A stretch of DNA of 64,000 nt from an uncultured Gammaproteobacteria bacterium (GCA_963807455.1 CAWECS010000005.1:63146-127145), one strand, 5' to 3'; shown: positions 5,838 through 53,337, numbered from the stretch's first letter. Numbers and translations: made by a program. The notes: generated by a model from the sequence alone, not told the origin.

Positions 5838-6476
5838 ATGACTATTAGTGTAGTAGGTCGAAAAGCAGGTATGACACGCGTCTTCACAGAAGCGGGTGAG
5901 TCTATCCCTGTGACAGTGATTGAGGTTGAGCCTAACCGGGTGACACAACTGAAGGCGGATGAGACTGATGGTTATCGTTCGATTCAAGTGACTGTAGGTC
6001 AGCGCAAGGCATCACGTGTCAATAAAGCGGCTGCCGGACACTTTGCCAAGGCAGGTGTTGAAGCAGGACGTGGACTCTGGGAGTCGCGTCTGGACGATGG
6101 CGAAGGCGAAGGCATTGAAGTGGGTTCAGAGATCAAGGTTGATGTCTTTGAAGAAGGTCAGATTGTTGATGTGACTGGGACCTCGATTGGTAAGGGTTTT
6201 GCTGGTGGTGTTAAGCGTCATCATTTCCACATGCAGGATGCGACTCATGGTAACTCATTGTCACATCGTGCATCGGGTTCTATTGGTCAAAACCAGACGC
6301 CTGGACGTGTATTTAAGGGTAAGAAAATGGCTGGTCACCTGGGTAATGTGCGCCGCACCATCCAGAACCTTGAAGTTGTCCGTGTTGATGCCGAGCGTAA
6401 CCTGTTATTAATTAAAGGTGCAGTGCCTGGTTCCAAAGGTGGCGATGTAATTATTCGCCCCGCTGTAAAAGCTTGA
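5838..6476 (+). CDS. rplC: 50S ribosomal protein L3
   Basis: L3 sequence (..[13 protein letters not shown]..). The ORF track starts at a TTG at 5832, but the ATG at 5838 (MTISVVGRK) aligns better with L3 N-termini. Confidence 0.93.
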
Positions 6477-6485
6477 TAGGAATAG

Positions 6486-7106
6486 ATGATGGATCTACAA
6501 ATGCAAAATGCCAAAGGTAACGCGAAACTAACAGTTTCTGATGCTGCATTTGGCCGTGAGTTTAATGAAGGCCTGGTTCATCAAGCAGTAGTGGGTTATC
6601 TCGCTACGGCAAGAGCAGGAACACGTGGCCATAAGAGTCGTTCTACGGCTAGCGGTGGCGGAATAAAACCTTGGCGACAAAAGGGGACAGGACGCGCGCG
6701 TTCTGGTACAATTCGCAGCCCAATCTGGAAAGGCGGCGGTAAAACCTTTGCAATCAGTGGTGGCCAGGATCATTCGGTCAAGCTGAACAAGAAAATGTAC
6801 CGCGCAGCAATGCAGTCCATCCTTTCTGAGTTGGTCAGGCAAGAACGCCTGGTAGTAATTGAAGATTTAACGTTGGATACACCAAAGACCAAGGACCTGC
6901 TGGCAAAAATGTCTGTTTTAGGCGTAGGTGAAAAGGCTTTGATTGTGACAGAGTCAGATAACCTGAATCTGTTTTTAGCAGCACGAAACTTGCCCTATGT
7001 GGAAGTTGAAGATGTGGCCGGGTTAAATCCTGTCAATCTTGTCGGCGCCGAGCAAGTTATCATGACAGAAGCTGCGATCAAGCGTGTAGAGGAGTTACTG
7101 GGATGA
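6486..7106 (+). CDS. rplD: 50S ribosomal protein L4
   Basis: 206 aa, ..[37 protein letters not shown].. Confidence 0.95.
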
Positions 7107-7405
7107 GCCAGGAAAGACTGATGAAAGTATTGTTAGCACCGCACGTTTCTGAAAAGACAACGCGGGTTGCTGATCAGGCTAACCAGGTTGTATTCAAGGT
7201 TTTGCCGGATGCTACTAAGATTGAAATTAAAAAAGCAGTCGAATTGCTTTTTGAAGTGCAAGTATCTTCAGTGCAAGTGTCCAATATGAAGGGCAAACTA
7301 AAACGTTTTGGCCAAAGCATCGGACGTAGAAAAAGCTGGAAAAAAGCCTACGTTACTTTAGCAGAAGGTCAGGATATAGATTTTATTGGCGGCGATACTG
7401 CTTAA
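7103..7405 (+). CDS. rplW: 50S ribosomal protein L23
   Basis: 100 aa; a 4-nt overlap with rplD (ATGA) is typical; L23 sequence. Confidence 0.95.
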
Positions 7406-7444
7406 TAAACTGGATTAAATGAATCGAATTTTGGTTGTAAGATC

Positions 7445-8272
7445 ATGGCGATAGTAAAAGTTAAACCGACATCACCTGGCCGACGTGGCTTGGTAAAAAT
7501 TGTCTCCCCGCATTTGCATAAGGGTGAGCCGCATGAGCCATTGCTTGAGAAAAAGAGCAAAAATGGCGGTCGTAATAATTACGGCAGAATCACGGTTCGT
7601 CATCATGGTGGTGGGCACAAGCAGCGTTATCGCATAATCGATTTCAAACGCGACAAGACAGGTATTCCTGCGGTCGTTGAAACGATAGAGTATGACCCGA
7701 ACAGAACAGCACATATCGCGCTTGTACTGTATGCCGATGGTGAGCGTCGATATATTATCGCTCCCAAAGGTTTGCGTTCCGGCGATCAAATTATGTCTGG
7801 CGTTGATGCGGCAATTAAAGCGGGTAATGCCTTACCTATGCGTAATATTCCTGTTGGAACAACCGTGCATAATATTGAAATGAAGCCTGGCAAAGGCGGC
7901 CAGATTGCACGAAGTGCAGGCACCTCGGCGCAAATCGTAGCCAGAGAAGGAGCGTATGTCACACTCAGACTGCGTTCAACTGAAATGAGAAAAGTATTAT
8001 CAGACTGTATGGCCACTATTGGTGAAGTCAGTAATGACGAGCACAGTTTGCGCAAGTTGGGTAAGGCTGGTGCATCACGCTGGCGTGGTATCAAGCCGAC
8101 AGTTCGTGGTGTTGCCATGAACCCGGTTGATCATCCGCATGGTGGTGGTGAAGGCCGTACCTCTGGTGGGCGTCATCCCGTATCTCCATGGGGAACGCCA
8201 ACAAAAGGTTATAAAACTCGTAAGAACAAGCGTACTAGTCGCTTGATCGTACGCCGTCGGACTAAAAAGTAA
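7445..8272 (+). CDS. rplB: 50S ribosomal protein L2
   Basis: 275 aa, ..[22 protein letters not shown].. and a C-terminal GGGEGR.. Confidence 0.97.
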
Positions 8273-23924: not shown

Positions 23925-24008
23925 TAGTCCCTAGTCCCTAGTCCCTAGTCCCTAGTCCCTAGTCCCTAGTCCCTAGTCCCTAGTCCCTAGTCCCTAGTCC
24001 CTAGTCCC
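23925..24008. repeat. Perfect heptanucleotide microsatellite (TAGTCCC)x12, which reads (GGGACTA)x12 on the minus strand
   Basis: Twelve uninterrupted 7-nt units lie between the ferredoxin stop (23849) and the anti-sigma stop (24008). The anti-sigma TAG stop sits inside the first unit on the minus strand. Confidence 0.95.
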
Positions 24009-24745
24009 TATATCTTAATATACGACCAACCTTCCTGTTGTTTTTTCATGACCTCGCCCAGTGCTGAGGGTACGGTGACCGTTTCAGGTAACATAATGAC
24101 CTTCTTGCCGGTTTGTCGCTGAACGCGTTTAATTGCATTTTGACAAGCCATGAACGTCAGATTTTGATAGCGTTGCTGGAGCACTTTAATTCTTTCACCA
24201 AAAGGGGTGTGTTTTGCCTGTAGTAGTTTGAGCCCTTTACCATTAGTGAGAATATCCAGTTTTACTTTCTTACCCATGTTTTCATATTGACTGAGAAAAT
24301 TTTCAGTTTCATCCAGAACAGTTTGCAGTTTGGATTGATTGTCAGTGGTGACATGCAGCATGAGTTTTATTTCATCGGCATGGCTTGTTGTTGCCGATTT
24401 TATTTGCATGGCTTCTGCAATATCAAGCAGGCTGTTTGCTTGCTGACTGTGTAAATGCAGGCTCCAGCCAAGCGCCACACCAAGAGACAAAATAATACTG
24501 GCGGCAAAGGCCATTCTGGATTTTTTTGCAAATACAGATCGGCCTAGTTGGCTTCCTTCAGGCGGGAGTTTTTCATGATAAGCATAGCGCACCATCTCAC
24601 GTATTTTTTGCAAGTCAGTTATACGACTATCCAGCTCAGGATTGTAGCGTAGTTCATCAAGCAATCGACCTGTCTCTTTCTTATCGAGTTCGCCGTCGAT
24701 GTAGGCATTCAGGTATTCATCTGAATAGTGATCATTATTGTTCAT
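24008..24745 (-). CDS. Anti-sigma factor (single-pass membrane protein, RseA/ChrR-like N-terminal anti-sigma domain)
   Basis: 245 aa. The N-terminal ..SDEYLNAYIDGELD.. motif is typical of anti-sigma N-domains. It has one TM helix (AFAASIILSLGVALGW). The start overlaps the stop of the ECF sigma gene by 4 nt. Confidence 0.75.
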   Translation of the reverse strand: MNNNDHYSDEYLNAYIDGELDKKETGRLLDELRYNPELDSRITDLQKIREMVRYAYHEKLPPEGSQLGRSVFAKKSRMAFAASIILSLGVALGWSLHLHSQQANSLLDIAEAMQIKSATTSHADEIKLMLHVTTDNQSKLQTVLDETENFLSQYENMGKKVKLDILTNGKGLKLLQAKHTPFGERIKVLQQRYQNLTFMACQNAIKRVQRQTGKKVIMLPETVTVPSALGEVMKKQQEGWSYIKI

Positions 24746-25296
24746 TTCACTCTCCTGAGAAATGGTATTTGATCATCCATGGTCTGGGTTTTCAGGTTTA
24801 AAAGTTGTTGGGTTAAAGATTTGCGGGCACGACAGAGTCGGCTCATGACAGTACCTATCGGTGTTTGTAAAATTTCTGCGACTTCAGCGTAACTGAAACC
24901 TTCCAGGTCAACCAATGTTAGCGTCTGTCGTTGTCCTATCGGCAGTCCAGCGACAGCATTCAGTATCGAGTCGGTAATATATTGACGGTGGTATTGTGAC
25001 TCTGGAGTTTCATCAACAGTAAACACACAGTCTTCAATATCTTCATGTTCGCGATTGCGACGAAAATGATCGCGCCAGCAATTGGCGAGAATGCCATACA
25101 GCCAGCAATTCAATGCTTCAGGATTTTTCAGGCTGGAATATTTTTTTAATGCCTTGGTCATGGTTTCCTGGGTTAAGTCATCACTCAGCGCTTCATCGTG
25201 GCACCAGGAGTAAGCAATACGGTATAGCCTGTTTCTCTGTGCAGCAATTCTGCCTTTCATTTCCCGGTCTTTACAAAAATGCGTTAATGGGTTCAT
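24742..25296 (-). CDS. ECF (RpoE-like) RNA polymerase sigma-70 factor
   Basis: 184 aa with sigma-70 region 2 (..LSDDLTQETMTKALKK..) and region 4 (..LTLVDLEGFSYAEVAEILQTPIGTVMSRLCRAR..). It is translationally coupled to the anti-sigma gene. Confidence 0.85.
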   Translation of the reverse strand: MNPLTHFCKDREMKGRIAAQRNRLYRIAYSWCHDEALSDDLTQETMTKALKKYSSLKNPEALNCWLYGILANCWRDHFRRNREHEDIEDCVFTVDETPESQYHRQYITDSILNAVAGLPIGQRQTLTLVDLEGFSYAEVAEILQTPIGTVMSRLCRARKSLTQQLLNLKTQTMDDQIPFLRRVK

Positions 25297-25345
25297 ATGG
25301 TTGCCTGTTTATTATTATGCGCTGTGATATTAATACACATGATAC

Positions 25346-25374
25346 TAGGACGTTGTAGCGATGGGAAATATTCC
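25346..25374 (-). promoter_or_regulatory. Candidate ECF-type promoter (GGAATA-N17-GTCCTA) for the sigma/anti-sigma operon
   Basis: On the minus strand, GGAATA (complement of 25369-25374), a 17-nt spacer and GTCCTA (complement of 25346-25351). The -10 lies about 50 nt upstream of the sigma start and resembles RpoE-type GGAAC-N16/17-GTCTAA promoters. Confidence 0.45.
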
Positions 25375-25442
25375 ATAATAATAAAACATAAGAAGGTTAT
25401 AAATTAATAAAAATCTAATATGTAATTTATTTGCAATTAGCT

Positions 25443-25470
25443 GGAATAAATTGCATCTTACCTACGTCTA
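25443..25470 (+). promoter_or_regulatory. Candidate ECF-type promoter (GGAATA-N17-GTCTA) reading toward the DsrE-like gene
   Basis: GGAATA 25443-25448, a 17-nt spacer and GTCTA 25466-25470. It has the same architecture as the divergent element at 25346-25374 and sits about 100 nt upstream of the 25568 ATG. Confidence 0.4.
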
Positions 25471-25567
25471 GAATGTTATGACATGCTCATAGTATTCAGG
25501 TTCCATAGACCAGTATTAGAGAATGATTCATAAAAAAACTGTATAACAAGACCCAGGAGTCAGCACT

Positions 25568-26011
25568 ATGAAAAAACCAATGCTGAAGTTGGCCGCCATA
25601 CTGGTAGCAGCTTCTCTTTCCATGGGAGCGTTTGTTGCCCAGGCAGCCAAACCTTTCGCAAAATATAAAGTCGTATTGCAAATCAGTGATCCCAATCCCT
25701 TCAAGCAAACGCTGGTACTGAATGTTGCCAGTAATCTTGTCAAGCATTATGGTGAAGATGATGTGGATGTTGAGATCGTAGCCTTTGGACCAGGCCTGCG
25801 TTTGTTGATGGACGGTAACGCCAATGCAGGACGTATCGATGGATTGGCAGAAAAAGGTGTTAGATTCAGCGCCTGTTCCAATACTATTCGTAATTTCGGT
25901 AAAAAACTCGGCGCACCACCCAAGCTGGATAAACATGCTACAAAAGTCAGTGCCGGTGTAGTTCAGATTATTGATCTGGTGAAACAGGGTTTTATCCTGG
26001 TCAAACCATAA
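25568..26011 (+). CDS. Secreted DsrE/DsrF-like family protein
   Basis: 147 aa with a signal peptide (MKKPMLKLAAILVAASLSMGAFVAQA). The mature part has the DsrE-like fold pattern (..KVVLQISDPNP..VEIVAFGPGL..FSACSNTIRN..). AGGAG Shine-Dalgarno. Confidence 0.55.
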   Translation: MKKPMLKLAAILVAASLSMGAFVAQAAKPFAKYKVVLQISDPNPFKQTLVLNVASNLVKHYGEDDVDVEIVAFGPGLRLLMDGNANAGRIDGLAEKGVRFSACSNTIRNFGKKLGAPPKLDKHATKVSAGVVQIIDLVKQGFILVKP

Positions 26012-26070
26012 AAAATAATTCATAGATTTAAATACCAAGCATAAAATTTCTTATGTCTGAGGAGATAATA

Positions 26071-27445
26071 ATGAGAGCAATTTTCAAGAAAACGATGCTG
26101 GCTGCATCGTGTGCTGCTGCAATTGGCGGCATCAATACTACAGTACAGGCTGCCGACTGGTTATCAATACAGGGCACCGAGGCTCATGGTACAGCGGGTC
26201 GCGCCAAGGTATGGGGGTTTATCCAGGCGCAGTATCAGAGTGATAACAGTGCAGCCAAATGGCGCTGGCACATATGTGCCACCCAAGTTGATTGGACCTG
26301 ATCTTGACTCGCAGGATGCATTTAATGTTAACCGTGCACGTATTGGCGTGCGTGGAACTGGTATGCCAATCGATCCTAACGTGAACTATTTCTTCCTGGT
26401 TGAGTTTGGTAATAATGCCATTACCAATCCAGGTAGCGGATTTGCCAAGGTGACCGATGCCAGTATTACCTTGAACCATTTGAAAGAATATGCGCGTGTT
26501 CGTGCAGGTCAGTTCAAGATCCCGATGGCTGAAGAGGTCTATCAGGGTATTGCCTTGATTGACTATGTAAACTTTACTGCATGGTGTTAACCAGATGTTG
26601 CTGGAGCGTGTTCCTAACAGAGCATACACTGGTAACGTTGCTCCGCAGCCAATAGCATCTACAACTTCATTAAATGCCTTTAACCAGTCAATTGATGCTG
26701 CACGTGATGTCGGTGTGCAGGTGTTTAATACCTTCAAAGTAGCGCCAAGCTGGGAAGCCAGTTACTCATTTATGGTTGGTAATGGTAACGGTATCAACAG
26801 TTCGGACAATGATAACGCAAAAGATTATCATCTGTATTTTTCTACCGCCAAAGTGTTTAAAGGTACAGGTCCAAGACGCCAGGACTGGAAAACTTTTGCC
26901 TGGTATACCAAAGGTGATCGTCATCTTGATGGTAACAATGATGGTGTAACTGAAGAATATGACCGTAAACGCTATGGTGTCGGTACCCGTTACCTCAAAC
27001 TACCTTTCCGCGTAGCGGTTGAGTGGATCAAGGCCAAAGGCGTTATTTTCCAGGGTCCGGATAAACCAAGCTTTGGGTTGTTGCCGTCCTTCCATAGGTA
27101 ATCCTACAACATCCTGCTAATGGATTGAATGATAATGCGGAAGCCAGTCAGTGGTCATATTGATGTTGGATATTATATTCCCAATACAAAATGGGAGCTG
27201 GATCTGCGCTATGCTGATTACACCCGTATGGAAGACTCTAATTGGTGCGTTCGTCAATTTGCACCTGAAGAGAATTCACGGTACTTGGGTGTTCAGTATC
27301 ACTTCAACAAGAAAACACGTTTGACTGTCAACGTCACTGACCGTGAGGTCGAAGCTCACTGCATTCGCTGCAGGTGCAGGTGCCAAATGGAAATCTGGAT
27401 GGTATTGATAAGCGTTATGCAGTACAGCTGACGCATATCTTCTAA
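26071..27445 (+). pseudogene. Outer-membrane porin (phosphate-selective OprO/OprP-like) disrupted by 6 or more frameshifts and in-frame stops
   Basis: A signal peptide (MRAIFKKTMLAASCAAAIGGINTTVQA) begins at 26071 after a GAGGAG Shine-Dalgarno. Porin-like segments continue in frame 2 (26300-26590: ..NRARIGVRGTG..QFKIPMAEE..), frame 3 (26595-27101) and other frames. A C-terminal ..YAVQLTHIF* ends at 27445 with the terminal Phe typical of OMP beta-barrels. No single frame is open. Confidence 0.5.
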
Positions 27446-27484
27446 GTGATCTCTTAGCAAGATTGTGACATGTAATGGTAGTAC

Positions 27485-27517
27485 AAACCCCGGCTTGTCC
27501 GGGGTTTGTTTTTTCAA
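27485..27517 (+). terminator. Rho-independent terminator after the porin pseudogene
   Basis: ACAAACCCCGG pairs with CCGGGGTTTGT around the loop CTTGT, followed by TTTTTTC. Confidence 0.7.
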
Positions 27518-27548
27518 AGAAGAAAATTATTGAGGTTGGAAATGAAGC

Positions 27549-28054
27549 ATGAAAAACTGTCTAACTGCTAGCATGCTTGCTATATTGCAAGCCTGTCGGG
27601 TCTTCCAATGTTAAGGATAGCAAGCCGCAAATGTAACATCTGATCCAGCTGGCGCAAGCGTTTATGCGAATGGGGCCAAGTTGGGAGTGACGCCATTACG
27701 GGCATAATTTGTTCAAGGCATTTCCTGCGGGATGGAATAACTGGGTGCTGAGTGCGCAAGGAGTACTGATGGTCAAGAAATCAGGCTGCGAGGATTTCAT
27801 GCTCAAAGTCAATGACGCCATTATTAGCCAGCCAATTCATGCGAAGTTGAATTGTGACAAAGCAGCCGCCACTGCCAAGCAAGAAGCGGATACCCAGGTT
27901 ACAGCCAGCTGCCAGCACGGCAGTCAGCCCTGCATCGCCCAAAGCCAGCCAGACTGAGGAACGTTTGAGTGAATTAAAGGAGCTGTATGAAAAAGGCGTG
28001 ATCACAAAGCAGGAATATGCCGCCACCCGGAAAAGGATACTGAATGAGCTGTAA
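27549..28054 (+). pseudogene. Lipoprotein with PEGA-like and C-terminal SHOCT domains, disrupted by several frameshifts
   Basis: A lipoprotein signal with lipobox (MKNCLTASMLAILQAC) runs into a stop after 21 codons. A PEGA-like segment (SDPAGASVYANGAKLGVTPL) and ..KKSGCEDFMLKVND.. lie in other frames. The last 66 codons (27854-28054) are an intact SHOCT motif (LSELKELYEKGVITKQEYAATRKRIL). Confidence 0.4.
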
Positions 28055-28094
28055 CGAGTTTACATACTGATATTGAAGTTCACCTAGTTTAATC

Positions 28095-28120
28095 AGGCCG
28101 ACATCGTCGGCCTTTTTTTG
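28095..28120 (+). terminator. Rho-independent terminator
   Basis: AGGCCGAC, loop ATC, GTCGGCCT, then T7. Confidence 0.75.
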
Positions 28121-28386
28121 TGTACAAAGATTGCCCCCATTAGCCCCCATTATATTAAGCAAGATGCTAATCTTGGCTTCAGCTTACAGTCAGGAATGGT
28201 TTAGATAAGCATGTTGGATATCAATAACATTAATATAAAAGGGGTTAATGTTTCTATCATTGATTAAACTTTTTCGATTTCAGGGTTGACAGCAACGCAA
28301 GAATATTAGAAAATTATTACATACTGATTCATCTGATTTATAAATCATGTGAATCTGACTCCTCCATCCTCCTTTGGTGGATATTT

Positions 28387-28420
28387 AAGCACAGCTCCTA
28401 CCTTTGCTGTGCTTTTTTTT
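28387..28420 (+). terminator. Terminator-like hairpin in the rplM upstream region (end of a candidate small RNA or leader)
   Basis: AAGCACAGC, a 10-nt loop, GCTGTGCTT, then T8, about 140 nt upstream of rplM. Confidence 0.5.
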
Positions 28421-28557
28421 GCCTGAAATTGATGATGTCTGTCTGCGGGCATGATTTATCCTGAAATTCGAACAATAATGCTTGAATAACAGACCTTTCT
28501 TATGTAACATTTCCGGCTCGCTAGACCATTGGTTTATATTTTTCGGAGCAGGATTCA

Positions 28558-28986
28558 ATGAGAACCTTTAGTGCAAAACCGGCCGAAGTGACACGTGACT
28601 GGTATATTATCGATGCCGAGGGCAAGACCCTGGGTCGTATGGCTACAGAAATCGCGCGTCGTTTACGCGGTAAACATAAAGCGGAATATACCCCGCACGT
28701 CGATACGGGCGACTATATCGTTGTCATCAATGCTGAAAAGATCCATGTCAGTGGTAATAAAATGAAGCAAAAGCTTTATCAGCATCATACAGGGTATATT
28801 GGTAACCTGAAAACCATCAGCCTGGAAAAATTACTGGTAAAATCACCTACTGCGGCTGTTGAAAAAGCCGTTAAGGGTATGTTGCCTAAAAATCCATTGG
28901 GCAGGGCGATGTTCAGGAAGCTTAAAGTCTTTGCTGGTGGAGAGCATACACATGCCGCTCAGCAGCCCAAGCAGCTTGAAATCTAG
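28558..28986 (+). CDS. rplM: 50S ribosomal protein L13
   Basis: 142 aa, [27 protein letters not shown].. Confidence 0.96.
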
Positions 28987-29028
28987 CATCAGAACCAATT
29001 ATTTAATGGCATAAATCTGGAATAAATT

Positions 29029-29424
29029 ATGGCAGCAACAGAACAATATACCGCCACCGGGCGACGCAAGACCTCAACAGCACGTGTATATCTCCGTCCT
29101 GGGAAGGGTGACATCAAGATTAACAAACTCAGTCTCGAGCAGTATTTCGGTCGTGAAACAGCACGCATGCTGGTTCGTCAGCCGCTGGAACTGGTTGAGG
29201 CAACGGACAAGTTTGATGTTTATGTCAATGTATCTGGTGGTGGAAACAGTGGCCAGGCCGGCGCTATTCGCCATGGCATCACGCGTGCACTGATGGAATA
29301 TGATGAAACCCTGCGGCCTGCGTTACGCAAAGCTGGTTTCGTAACACGTGATGCCCGTAAGGTTGAGCGTAAGAAGGTTGGCCTGCACAAAGCACGTAAA
29401 GCTCCTCAGTACTCGAAACGATAA
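29029..29424 (+). CDS. rpsI: 30S ribosomal protein S9
   Basis: 131 aa ending ..KAPQYSKR. Confidence 0.96.
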
Positions 29425-29489
29425 AAGTATTTCGAGTAGTAGCTGGTAGCGAGGGGCTAGTGGCTAGGTTAAATTAAGGAGGAAAGCGC

Positions 29490-29872
29490 ATGGATGCATT
29501 AGAGAATCTGGAAGTTTGGAAAAGAGCATGTAGACTTTCGGTGAGCATTTATCAAGTTTTTGCAGATAGTAAACAGTATGCTTTTAAGGATCAGATTACA
29601 CGTTCTGCTTTTTCAATTCCGTCGAATATCGCTGAAGGGTATGAAAGGGGTAGGTCATTACAGAATCCAGTTTTTAAATAATTGCTAAAGGTTCCTGCGG
29701 CGAACTTTGGACTCAATTAATGATCGGTAGAGCAGCAGGCTTGATTGATGCTGAAACGAGTAAAGAGCTGGAAAATGAAGCCAGGGAAATTTCAAAAATG
29801 CTTTATGGCTTAATGAAGTATTATAATGAAATTCAAGAAAAACTGGTTCCTAGCAAAAACCTAGTCTACTAG
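29490..29872 (+). pseudogene. Four-helix-bundle protein (23S rRNA intervening-sequence protein family, TIGR02436-like) with two +1 frameshifts
   Basis: Frame A reads [43 protein letters not shown], then stops. The family consensus continues as ..QFL.. in the +1 frame and as IIAKGSCGELWTQLMIGRAAGLIDAETSKELENEAREISKMLYGLMKY.. in the +2 frame, ending at 29872. AAGGAGG Shine-Dalgarno upstream. Confidence 0.6.
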
Positions 29873-29902
29873 TCCCTCGGTCACCTCGCTACTGTTATTT
29901 AT

Positions 29903-29976
29903 TGGGGAATCGTCTAACGGCAGGACAGAGGACTCTGACTCCTCTAATCAAGGTTCGAATCCTTGTTCCCCAGCCA
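29903..29976 (+). tRNA. tRNA-Gln (anticodon CUG)
   Basis: 74 nt. 7-bp acceptor stem TGGGGAA/TTCCCCA, D-arm GTCT..GGAC, anticodon stem GAGGA/TCCTC with loop CTCTGAC (anticodon CTG), T-arm CAAGG-TTCGAAT-CCTTG, discriminator G and an encoded CCA. Very similar to E. coli tRNA-Gln. Confidence 0.9.
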
Positions 29977-29987
29977 AAAAATAATAA

Positions 29988-30010
29988 CCCGCTTAGGCGG
30001 GTTTTATTTT
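29988..30010 (+). terminator. Terminator after tRNA-Gln
   Basis: CCCGC, loop TTAG, GCGGG, then TTTTATTTT. Confidence 0.7.
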
Positions 30011-30030
30011 GCTGGCGAACAGCGGAGCTT

Positions 30031-30066
30031 GCGGTTGCTCCTGCGCATCCATGCGCCCGCAACCGA
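30031..30066. repeat. REP-like palindromic element, copy A (inverted relative to copies B and C)
   Basis: GCGGTTGCTCCTGCGCATCCATGCGCCCGCAACCGA. Its reverse complement shares the core GCGGGCGCA(T/C)GGATGCGCAGGAGC with copies at 32803 and 32896. It is internally palindromic (GCGCAT..ATGCGC). Confidence 0.7.
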
Positions 30067-30412
30067 AGTGCCATTCCTTAGAGAAAGTTATAAACGGCAA
30101 TAAGCGCTTCCGAGTGCCCCTTATCAAAATACCGCTTAACGATAGTTAAATATCAACGATGAATGAAAATGGTAATGCAGGTGCGCTGGGCGCTGGGTGT
30201 ACCCATAATTGTTTATATTATTCTTCCAGACTGGGTGTTTAATAGTATTCAAGATCGTCTAGTAATTCATTCCCATATAGTCTGATACTTAGCAAGGCGC
30301 CATTTTATTAGCATTAGAATGTGGCGCAACATTCTGATTTTAATGCCATATTATATAATGTTGTAAATATGATACAGCTATTATAGGTGTGTCGTTTTTT
30401 TGAATAAAAATG

Positions 30413-30440
30413 TTGCATTTTTCTTTTTTGTTGCTATAGT
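30413..30440 (+). promoter_or_regulatory. sigma70-type promoter of porin copy 1 (TTGCAT-N16-TATAGT)
   Basis: TTGCAT 30413-30418 and TATAGT 30435-30440, about 50 nt upstream of the ATG. The same architecture occurs upstream of copy 2. Confidence 0.55.
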
Positions 30441-30489
30441 TCATGGCGTGTTTACAAATATAACTAAATTATTTAGAGGAATTCCTTAG

Positions 30490-31473
30490 ATGAATAAAAA
30501 ATTACTTGCTATTGCGGTGGGTGCAGCATTCAGTGCCGCTCCTATGTTTGCTTCTGCTGAAGTGACTGTTTATGGTCATGCTCAGGTTGAAGTGGGAACT
30601 GTTGATAATGGTACAACTGATACAAACAGTCGTTGAAGATAACGCTCGTGGACGTATTGGTTTCAAGGCTTCTGAAAAGCTGGGTAATGGTATGACAGCT
30701 ATCGCCAAGTACGAATTCCGTACTGATACTGCTGATAACGTTCGTACAGCAGATGGTGGTCCACTGACTGCACGTGAAGCCTTTGTTGGTTTGAAAGGTG
30801 GTTTCGGTACTGTTCAACTGGGTAACTTGAAGTCAGCTTATAAATACAACGGTGGTGTTAAGTATGACCCCTTCGTTGCTACATTGATTGAAGCTCGTGG
30901 CGCTAACGGTATGTCTAAAGGTGACTGGTAGGTGCATTTGGTCACAATGGTTTCCTCGCTAACAGTATTGGTTACATGTCGCCGAAGATCGGTGGTGGTT
31001 TCACTGGTTGGGCTACTTTCAGCCCTGATGAAGCTGGAGCAGGATAATGGTGCCGATGGCGACTATAGCTTTGGTCTGAAGTTTGCTCAAAAAGCCTGGG
31101 AAGTATTTGTTGCTGGTGTTAACAATGATGACGCTGCAAGTTACGAATGCAATCAAATTTGGTGGTATGTACAAATTTGGTAACTTCAAGGTTACTGGTC
31201 AGTACGAAATGGTGAGCTTCAATACTGGCTGCTACGCAGATACTGATGTTTATTTCATCGGTGGACAGGCCAAGTTTGGTAATAATGTATTGGTTGCGCA
31301 GTTCGGTAATTCAAGGATACAGACGGACGGCTGCTGATCTTGATTACTTCACTATCGGTGTCATTCATAATCTGTCCAAGAAAACACGTCTGACAGCTGG
31401 TTTCCGTAGCTACGATACTAGTGCTACAGCTGAAACTGATACATTTGCTGTTGGCATGCGTATGAAGTTCTAA
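30490..31473 (+). pseudogene. Outer-membrane general porin (Gram-negative/Neisseria-type porin family), tandem copy 1, disrupted by 5 or more frameshifts
   Basis: Starts MNKKLLAIAVGAAFSAAPMFASAEVTVYGHAQVEVGTVDNG (signal peptide) and ends ..AVGMRMKF*. Paralogous to 31748-32727 along its full length, but the reading frame changes near 30630, 30930, 31050, 31140 and 31320. Confidence 0.7.
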
Positions 31474-31499
31474 TAAAAACTATTAAAGTTGTATAGTTT

Positions 31500-31528
31500 G
31501 AACGGGGCCTTATGGACCCCGTTTTTTA
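31500..31528 (+). terminator. Rho-independent terminator after porin copy 1
   Basis: AACGGGGCC, loop TTATG, GACCCCGTT, then TTTTATT. Confidence 0.75.
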
Positions 31529-31677
31529 TTGTCGTAAATTTGATAATACTTAGCACTTGTTAATGAATACTTGCTTATTTTTGACGATAAGCCAGATACG
31601 AAAACCTAACAATAATCTATATTTAATAAACATTTACATGTGTGGATAATATCATTGTTGTTTTATTACAAAGATTG

Positions 31678-31705
31678 TTGCAATAAAACAGAATGTTGCT
31701 ATAGT
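31678..31705 (+). promoter_or_regulatory. sigma70-type promoter of porin copy 2 (TTGCAA-N16-TATAGT)
   Basis: TTGCAA 31678-31683 and TATAGT 31700-31705. The motif ...TGTTGCTATAGT.AT is shared with copy 1. Confidence 0.55.
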
Positions 31706-31747
31706 CATCCATGTTAATGGATATCTATTACTTGAGGAATCAATCAA

Positions 31748-32727
31748 ATGAATAAAAAATTACTTGCACTTGCCGTGGGCACAGCTTTCACGGCAGTACC
31801 AATGTTCGCAACTGCTGACGTGACTGTTTATGGCCATGCACAGGTTGAAGTGGGAACAGTTGATACAGGCGCAACTGATCAAACAGTTGTAGAGGATAAC
31901 GCACGCGGTCGTATTGGTATCAAGGCATCTGAGAAACTGTCTAATGGTATGACGGCTATCGCCAAGTACGAATTCCGTACTGATACTGCTGATAACGTTC
32001 GTACAGCAGATGGTGGCCCACTGACTGCTCGTGAAGCCTTTGTTGGTTTGAAAGGTGGTTTCGGTACTGTCAATTGGGTAACTTGAAGTCAGCTTATAAA
32101 TACACCGGTGGTGTTAAGTATGATCCCTTCGTCGCTACATTGATTGAAGCACGTGGTGCCAATGGTATGTCCGGTGGTGAACTGGGCAATGGTCAATATG
32201 GCCATAACAGCTTCCTGGGTAACGCAATTGGCTATATGTCACCCAAAATCGGCGGTGGTTTCACTGGCTGGGCGACATTCAGCCCTGATGAAGGTGCTGG
32301 TTCAGGCGGTGATTACAGCTTTGGTTTGCAGTTTGCTCAAAAAGCCTGGGAAGTATTTGTTGCCGGTGTTAGAAATGACGAAACTGTAGGTGCTGGTGGT
32401 GATGCAATCAAGTTTGGTGGTATGTACAAATTTGGTAACTTCAAGGTTGTTGGCCAGTACGAAACACTGAGTTTTGAAACAGCAGGTACGCCTGACACTG
32501 ATATCTATTTCGTCGGTGGTCAGGCCAAGTTTGGTAACAATGTATTGGTTGCCCAGTTCGGTAACAAGGATCCAGGCGGTGCTGCTTCTGATCTTGATTA
32601 CTTCACCATTGGTTTGATTCATAACCTGTCCAAGAAGACACGTCTGACAGCTGGTTTCCGTAGCTATGATACAAGTGCTACTACAGAAACTGAAACATTT
32701 GCTGTTGGCATGCGTATGAAGTTCTAA
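31748..32727 (+). pseudogene. Outer-membrane general porin (Neisseria-type porin family), tandem copy 2, interrupted by a single 1-nt deletion
   Basis: MNKKLLALAVGTAFTAVPMFATADVTVYGHAQVEVG.. has a signal peptide and aromatic girdle and ends ..FAVGMRMKF. One frame change lies near 32060-32075: ACTGTCAATTGGG here against ACTGTTCAACTGGG in copy 1. Otherwise about 326 aa are open. It could be functional if the indel is a sequencing error. Confidence 0.7.
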
Positions 32728-38731: not shown

Positions 38732-40067
38732 ATGCAAAAAACAAAAATATTCTCCCCGCTTTTCAGTTTTGGTATCCGCCAGAAGCTGTTGCTGATCCTG
38801 TTGATTGTGCTGTTAACCGCCTTGACGCTGAGCGGCTGGATGGCATTACAGCAGGAAAAAGTAAATACTCTGGAAGAGATTAATCAGCGCGGTTCGGATA
38901 TCAGTCGTTTTGTTGCCAAGTCGCTCAGTTATAGTGTGGTTGGTTATGATTACCATACCATTCAATTATTGCTGGATGAGATTACGTCATCAGAAGATGT
39001 TGGTTATGCCCGGGTCACCAATCAGCAGGGCAATGTCATGGGCGAGGCCGGTGAAAGGGAACCCGGATTGTTCTCGACGATGGTGATGTTTACCCAGGAT
39101 ATCAAACTTGAGGACAGCCTCATCGGAAATCTGGAATTAGGGTTGAGCACAGCTAAAACGATCGAGACTCTTGAAGAAAAAAAATATAGTATCATTCAGC
39201 GTGAAGTTATTATCGTCCTGCTGATTGCGTTAGGAGAGTTTATTGCGCTTTCGATTTTTATTATTCGACCCGTGCGATTAATGTCAAAGACACTTGTTTC
39301 CAGTGTTGATGAAAATGGTCATATTATAGAAAAAATACCGGTTGTGTCTCGTGATGAGTTCGGACAATTGGCTGAAAGTTTTAATACTCTGAGTGAGCGT
39401 CTAAATGTTGCTAATCAGCAACTACAGTCAAAAATAGAGCTGGCTGACAAGCAGTTAGCTGGAGACAAACAGACAGTTGCGGATTCAGTCAGAAGAGTTG
39501 AAAATCATTAATGAGAAATTTAAAAGAATGTCAATTACTGACTCATTAACCGGTTTATATAATCGCAGGCATTTTGAGCAGTTACTAAATACTGAATTTA
39601 AGACGGCCAGACGGCATGGCGAAGTAAATAGCTTGATTATTATTGATATTGATCATTTCAAACGAATTAATGACAATTTCGGACATCCAGCAGGAGACCT
39701 TGTGCTGCGGGATGTTGCCAGGTTACTGAAGAAGCGTCTACGTAGCACAGACTATCTTTGTCGTCTTGGTGGGGAAGAATTTGTAGTGTTATGCAAGCGG
39801 GCTGACAAGCAATCCGCGCTCAATATTGCTGAGGAAATGCGTAAAATAGTAGAACAAGCCCAATTTGATTTGGGAGGTGAGGTAACTCAGGTGACTATTA
39901 GTCTTGGTGTGTCGACACTGAGTCAGAATGAGGAATTAGAAGAGGCTGATCTGGCCTACCGTCAGGCTGACAAGGCGGTCTATTACAGTAAGCAAAATGG
40001 TCGCAATAAAACTGCTCATTATGATGACATCAAGGAACATGAGCTGGTCGATGAGTTTAGTCAGTAA
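38732..40067 (+). pseudogene. Membrane-bound diguanylate cyclase (periplasmic sensor-TM-HAMP-GGDEF) with one frameshift at the HAMP/GGDEF junction
   Basis: ORF 38666/38732-39511 encodes TM1, a periplasmic region of about 130 aa, TM2, HAMP and a coiled coil (..QQLQSKIELADKQLA..) and then stops. The GGDEF domain continues in the -1 frame from about 39459 (..LETNRQLRIQSEELKIINEKFKRMSITDSLTGLYNRR..RLGGEEFVV..). A single indel lies near 39455-39475. Confidence 0.7.
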
Positions 40068-43093: not shown

Positions 43094-43486
43094 CTAGCGT
43101 CTTCTCTTCTTGGCAGCAGCTCTTTTCTTCTTAGCTGGAGCCTTTTTCTTCTTCTTGGCAGCAGCTTTTTTCTTTTTAGCTGGAGCCCTTTTCTTCTTCT
43201 TGGCAGCAGCTTTTTTCTTTTTAGCTGGAGCCCTTTTCTTCTTCTTGGCAGCAGCTTTTTTCTTTTTCTTAGCTGGAGCCTTTTTCTTCTTCTTGGCAGC
43301 AGCTTTTTTCTTCTTAGCTGGAGCCTTTTTCTTCTTCTTAGCTGCAGCTTTTTTCTTTTTAGCTGGAGCTTTTTTCTTCTTAGCTGTTGCCTTCTTCTTC
43401 TTGGCTACAGACTTTTTCTTTTTAGCCACTGCCTTTTTCTTCTTGGCAGGAGCCCTCTTTTTTACTGCTTTCTTTTTAGTTGCCAT
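43094..43486 (-). CDS. Lys/Ala-rich histone H1-like nucleoid protein (AlgP/Hc-like), composed of KKKK-A-P/A-AKKKK repeats
   Basis: 130 aa from the ATG at 43486, which has GGAGG 7 nt upstream: MATKKKAVKKRAPAKKKKAVAKKKK.. followed by about 16 repeats of A(A/P)AKKKK(K). The DNA is a perfect 42-48-nt tandem repeat. The ORF track lists a TTG at 43501. Confidence 0.75.
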   Translation of the reverse strand: MATKKKAVKKRAPAKKKKAVAKKKKSVAKKKKATAKKKKAPAKKKKAAAKKKKKAPAKKKKAAAKKKKKAPAKKKKKAAAKKKKRAPAKKKKAAAKKKKRAPAKKKKAAAKKKKKAPAKKKRAAAKKRRR

Positions 43487-44698
43487 GTTAATGACCTCCA
43501 ATAATAAATAATATAAGTATCGTTTGCTCGCGATTGAGTATATACCAGTAGAAAGAAAATTCCAGTAAAATCAAAAAATAATTTGACTTTTTTAATTTTA
43601 GTTATACTTGAATGTTAAAAAAACATTGTTGCTGGAAATATCTTTTATTGCTGCATTCTGACTTTTGTGTCGGCAAACGATATGAAAACTTAAACTTTAG
43701 GTAACAGAATCGGATAAAAAACGAATATTTTAAAAAAAAATTAGTATATGTAGCCATTTTTGATAATTAATTCGGATTATTTTTAAAAATTTAAAGATGA
43801 AAACTTGTTTTTAGTGTTTCTTGAGTAAGAAATAATTACTTTTTCATTCGCTGAACGAAATTTGAATGCATCAACAGAGATTTTTTAGTTAAATTTATAA
43901 AAATCGTAAAAAAAATGCCTTCGTAATAGTTGGTTTTTCTAAAAAATGCTTTTTTATGTTTATTTTTTCTTTTTTAATTCTATTTTTGTCTTAAATTATC
44001 CTGCTGAACGTGAAAAATGACGCGCAATGTAAAAAAGTGTCGTAATTTTTTACATTTTTTATTGATTGATCACTGACAAATGCGCTGTTTTGACCTGGTT
44101 GTTGTCGTTTGGCCGCTATTTTTCAAAAAATTAATAGAGCCGACTGATAATTTAAGCCGATTTTGTTTTTTTAAAAGAATATTTTTGTCTTTTTGACTCA
44201 CTCAGAGGGTACTAATCGCTGTTCTTGGTTGTTGAAGGGCTTTTATATTGGATGAATGCTCGTACAAGCGGTTTTTTTCAATTGTTTTTGTTGTTCTGAT
44301 AATTTTTATCTTATTTTTTTTGTAAAGTGTAAAAAATTGTAACCAATGGTCATTTTATCTCATGCTGGCTTTTATGCAGAATAATGTTGCCATGCATTCC
44401 CGTTTCTATTCCGGTTGCATGATTTCAATGCATCTATGTTTATTCATACTCTCTTTTGGCTGAATAATTAATCGCTGCCATGAAGATGCAATTTATTATT
44501 TAGACAATTTGAGCAGCATTGATAACGAAGCGTCGATAAAAAGCTTTATGCATTGCAAGATGCAATGAAATGCCGAATGTTTTACCTTAGGCGACTCTGT
44601 TTCAATGAGCAGGTGCGAATGAAACCAGTTTTTTTTCAGCCAGATCGTAAAAACTCTTTTTTGTATTCTACGGCCGCATTATCAAAGGTGGTAAAAAT

Positions 44699-45295
44699 CT
44701 ACTGTTTTGAGGAATAGAGTTTATTTTCAGTGATAACTAATTGCAGCGGTACATCCCAGGTTTGCGGATGGATGTTCGGGACTTTTTGAAACTCATAGGC
44801 AATGCCAATCATTCTGGGTTTGTCCCAATGTTGCCTGAAACGCAAAAAGTTAAAGCTACGGTCATAGTATCCTCCTCCCATACCGATTCGGTGGCATTGC
44901 TGATCAAAGGCCACTAGCGGCGTTATGACCAGATCAAGATGAGTAGCAGGAATTAAATCACGACCATGGTATACCGGCTCGGGAATTCCATAGCGATTGA
45001 TTTGCATTTTGCTGTCGGCATGCCAGCGCGTAAACCAGAGCCGGTTAGTTAAGAAAGGCATCAATACGGGCAGGTAAATTGATTTACCTAACTGACGGGC
45101 CAGATCAACTAATGGTAATGGACTCATTTCACCTTGCATGGGCAGATAAACAGCAAGATTCTGGCTGTTGAGAAAGAACTTATGTTTTTTTAGTCTTGCA
45201 TGCATCATCCAGGCATATTGTTGACGGCTGATGTTATCCAGCTGCTGTCGTTGCCGCTTGATGCGGGATCTGATAGTGGCTATTTCAGTTTTCAT
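44699..45295 (-). CDS. fau: 5-formyltetrahydrofolate cyclo-ligase
   Basis: 198 aa, MTHFS family (..GMGGGYYDRS..). It lies directly downstream of the 6S RNA region, as E. coli ygfA/fau does. Confidence 0.85.
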   Translation of the reverse strand: MKTEIATIRSRIKRQRQQLDNISRQQYAWMMHARLKKHKFFLNSQNLAVYLPMQGEMSPLPLVDLARQLGKSIYLPVLMPFLTNRLWFTRWHADSKMQINRYGIPEPVYHGRDLIPATHLDLVITPLVAFDQQCHRIGMGGGYYDRSFNFLRFRQHWDKPRMIGIAYEFQKVPNIHPQTWDVPLQLVITENKLYSSKQ

Positions 45296-45429: not shown

Positions 45430-45613
45430 AAGGGTCCCGCGTGTGCCGTCGCAGCTTTCGCCCTTGAACCTGAGGTTCAGGTGGGAATAGCGTGGATTCA
45501 TCAGGCTTTCCGCTTCAAGGCGGACTTGCACAACAGTATCTGAACACTAAACCCGGGTATAATAACATGGCTCAAGAATTTACCCGGCTGCTAACGAACA
45601 CCGCAGGAGATCA
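45430..45613 (-). ncRNA. ssrS: 6S RNA (SsrS); end coordinates approximate
   Basis: The minus-strand sequence AUGAUCUCCUGCGGUGUUCGUUAGCAGCCGGG..CUUGAGCC..UAUACC ... CACCUGAACCUCAGGUUCAAGGGCGAAAGCUGCGACGGCACACGCGGGACCC aligns segment by segment with E. coli 6S RNA (..UGUUCGCAAGCGGGCC..CUGAGCC..CAUACC ... CACCUUGAACCAAGGGUUCAAGGG..CUGCGGCGGCAU..). It has the conserved zapA-ssrS-fau synteny. Confidence 0.65.
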
Positions 45614-53093: not shown

Positions 53094-53106
53094 TGCACTT
53101 CAATTA

Positions 53107-53337
53107 CAGACCCGATGGGAGATACCCGAACACTTGTTCGGGAGCCGAAGGCGCAACACATCGCTCGGAAACGCTCAGGCAAACGGACTATCGGGTTATA
53201 TTGACTCTGGAGAGTGATTACATAGGGTGATCCACCGACGGGGCAGAGAATAGGCCATTATGCTGTCATTCTCAATCTCTCAGGTTAAGGGACAGAGGGG
53301 CGGTAACAGGTCTTGGCCTGTTGCCGTCTTTTTTTTG
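53107..53337 (+). promoter_or_regulatory. Glycine riboswitch (tandem aptamers) with terminator expression platform, leader of the gcvT operon
   Basis: Aptamer 1 has P1 CCCGAT..ATCGGG (53111-53195) with GGGAGA, GCCGAAGGCGCAA and CUCAGGCAAACGGAC. Aptamer 2 has P1 CTCTG..CAGAG (53206-53297) with GGAGAG, CACCGACGGGGCA and CUCUCAGGUUAAGGGACAGAG. Then an intrinsic terminator: a 10-bp stem CGGTAACAGG/CCTGTTGCCG plus T8 (53301-53336). This is a classic ON-switch arrangement. Confidence 0.85.

Follow-up and report, generated by a model that had tools for sequence, protein, structure and literature searches.

Six genes in a 64,000-nucleotide stretch of DNA from an uncultured gammaproteobacterium (hereafter the window; G+C content about 46%) are interrupted by small insertions and deletions (indels) that shift their reading frames. 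Five of them lie between 26 and 33 kb, downstream of the end of rpoC, the str, S10, spc and alpha ribosomal-protein operons and secY, which occupy 1-19 kb. They code for an OprO/P-like porin, a PEGA-SHOCT lipoprotein, a four-helix-bundle protein and two tandem Porin_4 porins, and the sixth, further downstream, codes for a HAMP-GGDEF diguanylate cyclase. Comparison of these sequences with those of related bacteria indicates, with a probability of about 0.7, that the frameshifts are consensus or assembly artefacts derived from merged strain or paralogue variants and not mutations present in a living genome; as a biological feature, the breakage of the six genes is probably not real. The initial annotation of the window had offered ongoing pseudogenisation and consensus collapse as two options without choosing between them. 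The second is favoured by the results presented here, and the first is argued against.

The reference sequences were the syntenic contigs L081 to L089 and L090 to L099, which were reached from a search with the repaired second copy of the tandem porin. A single gene order is common to all relatives and consists of the genes for an extracytoplasmic function (ECF) sigma factor, an anti-sigma factor, a 147-amino-acid protein, the O/P porin, the PEGA-SHOCT lipoprotein, the ribosomal proteins L13 and S9, a protein of the 23S-rRNA-intervening-sequence-protein (IVP) family, tRNA-Gln, two Porin_4 porins, a VTT protein and a 1280-amino-acid DUF3683/FAD-oxidase protein, followed further along by HAMP-GGDEF (443 amino acids), RpiA and IlvA. 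The nearest relative is L086, with a core-gene protein identity of 87-96% and a DNA identity of 81-90%. No assembly of the same species was found when genome contigs were scanned with rplM (best identity 78%), when metagenomes were scanned with the 147-amino-acid neighbour (best identity 91%, which was L086) or in a SecY search, where the best match reached 98% but belonged to L082, a more distant genome. The six genes are all intact and in a single frame in 12 syntenic relatives representing about eight species.

Frame changes were detected by tblastn with the proteins of L086, L081, L087 and L084 and the lesions were then placed by multiple DNA alignments, a codon-score frame plot being used only as a coarse map. 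Exactly six genes of the window were split across frames, and their neighbours were all full-length. In total, at least 21 frame-disrupting indels were counted in the approximately 5.5 kb covered by the six genes, which corresponds to about 3.8 lesions per kb. The initial annotation had already described five broken envelope or accessory genes at 26-33 kb and the cyclase gene as a sixth case; the tblastn frame splits, together with indels found in the window only, bear this description out, and the lesion counts given there are matched or slightly raised by the alignments.

The gene of the OprO/P-like porin (26071..27445, plus strand; orthologues of 450-470 amino acids) contains seven single-base insertions, at 26252, 26580, 27087, 27107, 27158, 27356 and 27381 (6 or more had been announced), which are restricted to the window in a 7-sequence DNA alignment. 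Its tblastn matches run through frames 1, 2, 3 and 2, and removal of the seven bases yields an open reading frame (ORF) of 455 amino acids. The in-frame stops that had been listed as additional lesions of this gene follow from its out-of-frame segments, as the corrected ORF is open. Porin_O_P (PF07396) was matched by the fragment 26111-26590 and by the orthologues, while the corrected full-length product fell short of the E=0.01 cut-off for this Pfam family. In the gene of the PEGA-SHOCT lipoprotein (27549..28054, plus strand; orthologues of 166-168 amino acids), for which 3 or more frame changes had been noted, at least four frame-disrupting indels were found: a one-base deletion at 27596, one-base insertions near 27601 and at 27700, and a net gain of one base within the linker at 27870-27945, the exact position of this last lesion being uncertain. 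The tblastn frames are 3, 1 and 2. SHOCT was matched at 27854-28054 of the window, and both PEGA and SHOCT match the L086 orthologue, on which PEGA was confirmed.

The IVP family gene, which is predicted to encode a four-helix bundle (29490..29872, plus strand; orthologues of 117-124 amino acids; PF05635 match at 29490-29681), has a 2-nucleotide deletion at 29646 and a 1-nucleotide insertion at 29679, the two lesions previously counted; it is read in frames 3, 1 and 2, and its corrected ORF is open. The first tandem porin copy (30490..31473, plus strand; orthologues of 315-327 amino acids) carries six frame-disrupting indels, against the 5 or more reported before. A 10-sequence alignment placed them at 30622 (+1), 30931 (-4), 31044 (+1), 31146 (+1), 31310-31311 (+2) and 31327 (-1); the tblastn frames 1, 2, 1, 2, 3 and 1 are joined into an open ORF once these are corrected. 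The second copy (31748..32727, plus strand), which like the first matches Porin_4 (PF13609), has one lesion, as stated earlier, a single-base deletion at 32070 that was used in the initial annotation as the example of GTCAATTGGG against GTTCAACTGGG. Its frames are 2 and 1, and an open ORF of 326 amino acids is obtained by putting back one T. A 214-amino-acid protein (P0022) annotated on a public contig of 229,157 nucleotides matches the C-terminal part of this second copy with 100% identity, and thus at least this frameshift is present in the deposited record. Finally, the diguanylate cyclase gene (38732..40067, plus strand; orthologues of 443-444 amino acids) has the one frameshift originally noted, a single-base insertion at 39457 by which a TTG/TTA leucine codon is written as TTAG. 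It is read in frames 2 and 3, and its corrected product of 444 amino acids matches both HAMP and GGDEF.

Correction of the indels alone was therefore sufficient to reopen five of the six genes over their full length (the O/P porin, the IVP gene, both Porin_4 copies and the cyclase), and the damage consists of small indels only. No independent nonsense codon was found in these five fully corrected genes. Independent nonsense mutations, considered as a second type of lesion, were rejected, since the stops vanish once the indels are corrected.

The spectrum of the indels is unlike that expected from ordinary decay, in which deletions equal or exceed insertions and nonsense substitutions also occur. 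Small insertions outnumber small deletions by 15 to 5 in the broken genes, whereas 300 insertions and 396 deletions were counted in curated bacterial pseudogenes (PMC6054270), a difference with P=0.004. Only 2 of the 13 single-base insertions extend a run of identical bases, although a fraction of 0.44 would be expected for random bases (P=0.03). This agrees with the earlier remark that many of the frame changes do not fall in homopolymers: 11 of the 13 single-base insertions extend none.

Of the 13 single-base insertions, 10 add a base that relatives carry as an alternative allele at the adjacent column (null expectation about 0.35, P=0.0025), and the doubled allele is often at a synonymous third codon position. 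Thus, a proline codon that is CCG or CCT appears as CCGT at 27087, an alanine codon GCT or GCC as GCTC at 27356, a glycine codon GGT or GGG as GGTG at 27381, and the leucine codon TTA or TTG as TTAG at 39457. The first porin copy also contains an out-of-register hybrid of two allele types known from relatives, in which AATTCCGAT and AACAAGGAT are combined into AATTCAAGGAT, and a second hybrid in which TACGAAT is fused to GCAATC. With the alleles of other species taken as a proxy, the indels are therefore found at polymorphic sites where both alleles are kept or hybrids are formed. The spacer between the two porin genes has three single-base insertions relative to L086 (31513, 31574 and 31641), one of them in the terminator hairpin of the first copy, and no deletions. 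Judged from this alignment, non-coding DNA at the inter-porin locus seems to have been hit by the same process as the genes; intergenic alignments with L086 are in general too divergent to be interpreted.

The frame-corrected genes were then compared with L086 for signs of relaxed selection. The ratio of nonsynonymous to synonymous substitution rates (dN/dS) was 0.058 for the O/P porin, 0.067 for the IVP gene and 0.066 for the cyclase gene, all three within the range of intact neighbours (0.03-0.08), and 0.14 and 0.17 for the first and second Porin_4 copies. In a three-taxon comparison, the amino-acid changes specific to the window and to L086 were 13 and 10 for the O/P porin, and 6 and 3, 30 and 26, 10 and 33, and 7 and 37 for further broken genes. 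Summed over the broken genes these amount to 66 against 109 (ratio 0.61), compared with 51 against 77 (0.66) in the controls. The first Porin_4 copy has 7 window-specific changes over 311 sites despite its six frameshifts. Neither dN/dS nor the three-taxon counts therefore revealed the acceleration of the window branch that relaxed selection on a pseudogene lineage should leave.

In bacterial mutation-accumulation data, small indels are about ten-fold rarer than base substitutions. Twenty-one neutral indels should thus be accompanied by some 200 substitutions, mostly nonsynonymous, including several stops; nothing of that kind was found in the six genes. About 4% of random substitutions were computed to create a stop.

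The lesions are confined to these genes. The rplM gene (L13; 28558..28986, plus strand) and the rpsI gene (S9; 29029..29424, plus strand), which sit between broken genes, align in a single frame over 142 of 142 and 131 of 131 amino acids, with 96% and 95% identity to L086, respectively. The gene for tRNA-Gln (CTG; 29903..29976, plus strand), also situated between broken genes, was detected by ARAGORN and by the Rfam tRNA model with 59.8 bits, and its position is conserved in seven relatives. The statement that these three genes are intact inside the decayed stretch is thus confirmed. At the lesion density of the broken genes, 3.4 lesions would be expected in the three together and none was found (P=0.03); in the adjacent 3.8-kb gene for the 1280-amino-acid protein, none was found against 14.6 expected (P = 5e-7). 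The other coding DNA of the window, about 50 kb, contains no frame lesion, where about 189 would be expected at the same density. Approximately 65-70 other genes are intact by single-frame full-length alignment or full coverage of a Pfam profile, and in the genes at 43-64 kb the profiles are covered in full. The earlier claim that the remaining genes are free of frameshifts holds, although their number had been put too low, at about 55. The cyclase lesion lies 6 kb beyond the main patch.

Strain variability or paralogy was found for two of the affected loci, the tandem porins and the porin-lipoprotein block. The two Porin_4 copies are 90% identical and share near-identical tracts, and the deletion in the second copy falls inside a tract almost identical to the first, five bases from a single-nucleotide polymorphism that separates the paralogues. 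The contigs L085 and L086 of a sister population, 99.8% identical elsewhere, differ in a 4.2-kb block that L086 has and L085 lacks, with the anti-sigma gene at one end and the lipoprotein gene at the other. Its counterparts in the window are the genes for the anti-sigma factor, the ECF sigma-70 factor and the 147-amino-acid protein (together 24008..26011), the porin and the lipoprotein. In L086 the block is bracketed by a direct repeat of about 130 bp (at about 2390-2480 and 6570-6620) that ends in (TAGTCCC)n. The porin-lipoprotein locus is thus plausibly microdiverse, and at least six related species share the same metagenomes.

The proposed origin of the frameshifts is as follows. The source would be a population-derived assembly, of the kind of a metagenome-assembled genome (MAG), whose single consensus was built from at least two divergent haplotypes. 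These haplotypes may be alleles of co-occurring strains or, for the tandem porins, the two paralogues with about 90% identity. Nearby allelic variants are known to cause wrong read alignments and indel errors, and hence apparent frameshifts, in a collapsed assembly (PMC8445201). Likewise, where reads are misaligned because of closely spaced variants, the consensus could keep both alleles in tandem and gain a base; alternatively, it could keep neither and lose a base, or join two allele types out of register. The rplM, rpsI and tRNA-Gln genes would stay clean because strain divergence in them is too low to trigger such errors. The reads would then be expected to resolve into intact haplotypes.

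Several points weigh against consensus collapse. The artefact is one that we infer and did not observe, and the allele-doubling test lets alleles of other species stand in for those of co-occurring strains, with gap positions in the alignments that are arbitrary to some degree. Insertions of this sort could not arise in a pure de Bruijn-graph assembly of short reads. Moreover, for the roughly 50 kb of coding DNA outside the six genes to be wholly free of errors, strain divergence must be concentrated in exactly those genes. The support from strain variability or paralogy covers the tandem porins and the porin-lipoprotein block and does not extend to the IVP and cyclase loci, and the N-terminal third of the O/P porin, at 93-97% protein identity to L086, is not obviously hypervariable. 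Finally, the functional coherence of a gene set devoted to the envelope and to signalling would also be expected from real, selective gene loss.

Such a loss, namely a genuine and very recent pseudogenisation in which the three porins, the lipoprotein, the four-helix protein and the diguanylate cyclase were truly lost while core genes were kept clean, is considered unlikely. Its cause could have been a new niche, possibly with a host, in which selection was relaxed, or else selection for shedding the receptors used by phages or predators. The affected genes are indeed dispensable and functionally coherent, they carry lesions far more densely than neighbouring genes do, the block from sigma factor to lipoprotein was lost naturally in the sister strain, the lesion of the second porin copy is in the public record, and pseudogenes with multiple indels outside homopolymers are known in symbionts (PMC6054270). 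However, true loss would have had to bring in 21 indels without one nonsense codon in five of the six genes once corrected and without a nonsynonymous excess on the window branch, dN/dS staying at 0.06-0.17, and with insertions exceeding deletions three to one, contrary to the usual deletional bias. In addition, no mutational mechanism predicts inserted bases that match the alleles at adjacent polymorphic sites. The host-restricted or genome-reducing lifestyle that had been suggested with this option finds no support among the relatives, which come from environmental metagenomes and have kept all of these genes intact. If the lesions were real nevertheless, they would represent a near-simultaneous, insertion-biased loss that involved no slippage and left no trace of relaxed selection, perhaps through homeologous recombination of divergent alleles, a scenario to which we give a still lower chance.

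Random sequencing error that is specific to a platform and unrelated to polymorphism, in an unpolished patch of low coverage, appears improbable. Homopolymer errors of nanopore, 454 or Ion sequencing and insertions in continuous long reads (CLR) of PacBio were considered; an excess of insertions is typical of CLR reads. All lesions being small indels, with insertions in excess, would fit such errors, and a contig of 229 kb is consistent with a long-read or hybrid assembly. Yet only 2 of the 13 single-base insertions extend a run, the rplM, rpsI and tRNA-Gln genes within the patch and the adjacent 3.8-kb gene are clean, the cyclase lesion is outside the patch by 6 kb, and the inserted bases are not random relative to the alleles of relatives. 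Errors of the homopolymer type were rejected on the scarcity of insertions in runs and on the lesion-free coding DNA elsewhere, in agreement with the initial annotation, which had held that random homopolymer error would not spare essential genes so selectively. Phase variation is classically known from genes for surface porins and lipoproteins, and a regulated switching of frames in surface-protein genes, by phase variation or programmed ribosomal frameshifting, would accord with the types of gene affected. Against this, up to seven shifts occur per gene, the tandem-repeat scan was empty at the lesions except for a 2.5-copy TGCAGG unit beside 27381, none of the lesion sites was noted to have a slippery heptamer, and the orthologues are read in a single frame without need of a shift. 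Both forms of switching were rejected on the number and context of the lesions, and such an origin is hardly credible.

The three genes upstream of the O/P porin gene are intact by full-length single-frame alignment. They code for the anti-sigma factor (24008-24745, minus strand), the ECF sigma-70 factor (24742-25296, minus strand) and the secreted 147-amino-acid protein (25568-26011, plus strand). The last of these is paralogous (24-29% identity) to a weakly DsrE-like domain at the C-terminal end of the anti-sigma factor next to it, which suggests that the sigma factor, the anti-sigma factor, the 147-amino-acid protein, the porin and the lipoprotein may form one envelope-signalling module. 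A perfect (TAGTCCC)x12.3 heptamer array occupies 23925-24010, between a 102-amino-acid ferredoxin-like gene and the anti-sigma gene. The length of the region downstream of tRNA-Gln varies: relative to L086, the window has extra segments of 92 and 24 nucleotides there, and L081 alone has genes with Calx-beta and Big_9 domains (5947-7739) between tRNA-Gln and the first Porin_4 gene.

Related MAGs were also checked for errors of the same kind. In L081 (GCA_947258755.1), a 20-bp deletion at about 14185 splits the 1280-amino-acid DUF3683/FAD-oxidase gene into ORFs of 688 and 570 amino acids, which is a different kind of lesion. A short L6 call in L100 was examined as a possible frameshift and rejected, as it reflects only the choice of start codon. 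Elsewhere in the window, a 135-amino-acid protein rich in lysine and alanine, with 'AKKKK' repeats, a histone-H1-like character and no Pfam match, is encoded at 43094-43501 (minus strand) in surroundings of 31-37% G+C, next to an AT-rich segment of about 1.2 kb (43500-44700) in which no ORF is convincing. A 6S RNA was located at 45430-45612 (minus strand), between zapA and the 5-formyl-THF cyclo-ligase gene, and a tandem glycine riboswitch at 53106-53305 (plus strand), upstream of gcvT-gcvH-gcvP.

A naive census of pseudogenes would count this genome among those that shed envelope functions, from which early genome reduction or host restriction might be concluded. The main value of the case is one of caution and of method. 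Artefacts of this type may be recognised from the sequence and its relatives, with no recourse to reads, by a signature of lesions that are exclusively indels, full-length ORFs that are restored by their removal, an unchanged dN/dS, an excess of insertions and the retention of both alleles of an adjoining polymorphic site. Were the lesions real, outer-membrane proteins would have been lost in an unusually abrupt and targeted way, and the window would capture envelope remodelling at its very start, by host restriction or phage escape, in a marine gammaproteobacterium.

The pattern was finally compared with three documented systems. Frameshift errors in long-read MAGs (Sereika et al. 2022, PMC9262707) are similar in that consensus indels truncate gene calls and that MAGs affected by microdiversity are concerned; however, those errors occur genome-wide and mostly in homopolymers, whereas the indels of the window are limited to six genes and keep clear of runs. 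The pseudogenes of Candidatus Burkholderia leaf-nodule symbionts (PMC6054270) share with the window genes the presence of several independent small indels per gene, mostly outside long homopolymers, and their position among intact genes. They differ in that deletions prevail over insertions (396 and 300, as against 5 and 15 in the window) and in that, according to that paper, their nonsynonymous substitutions accumulate faster than in functional genes, which is the basis of its dating method, while in the window genes dN/dS does not exceed 0.17, the branch is not accelerated and nonsense codons are absent. A precedent for the proposed collapse is the genome of Trypanosoma brucei Lister 427 (Cosentino et al. 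2021, PMC8445201), in whose collapsed assembly indels arose at alleles of unequal length or where reads were displaced in the alignment by allelic variants close by. T. brucei is a diploid eukaryote in which the artefact was proven by phased reads, whereas in the window bacterial strains or tandem paralogues would play the part of the 'haplotypes' and the artefact would have been recognised without reads. In both cases ORFs are truncated by small indels alone, and full length is regained, in T. brucei after separation of the haplotypes and in the genes of the window after removal of the indels.

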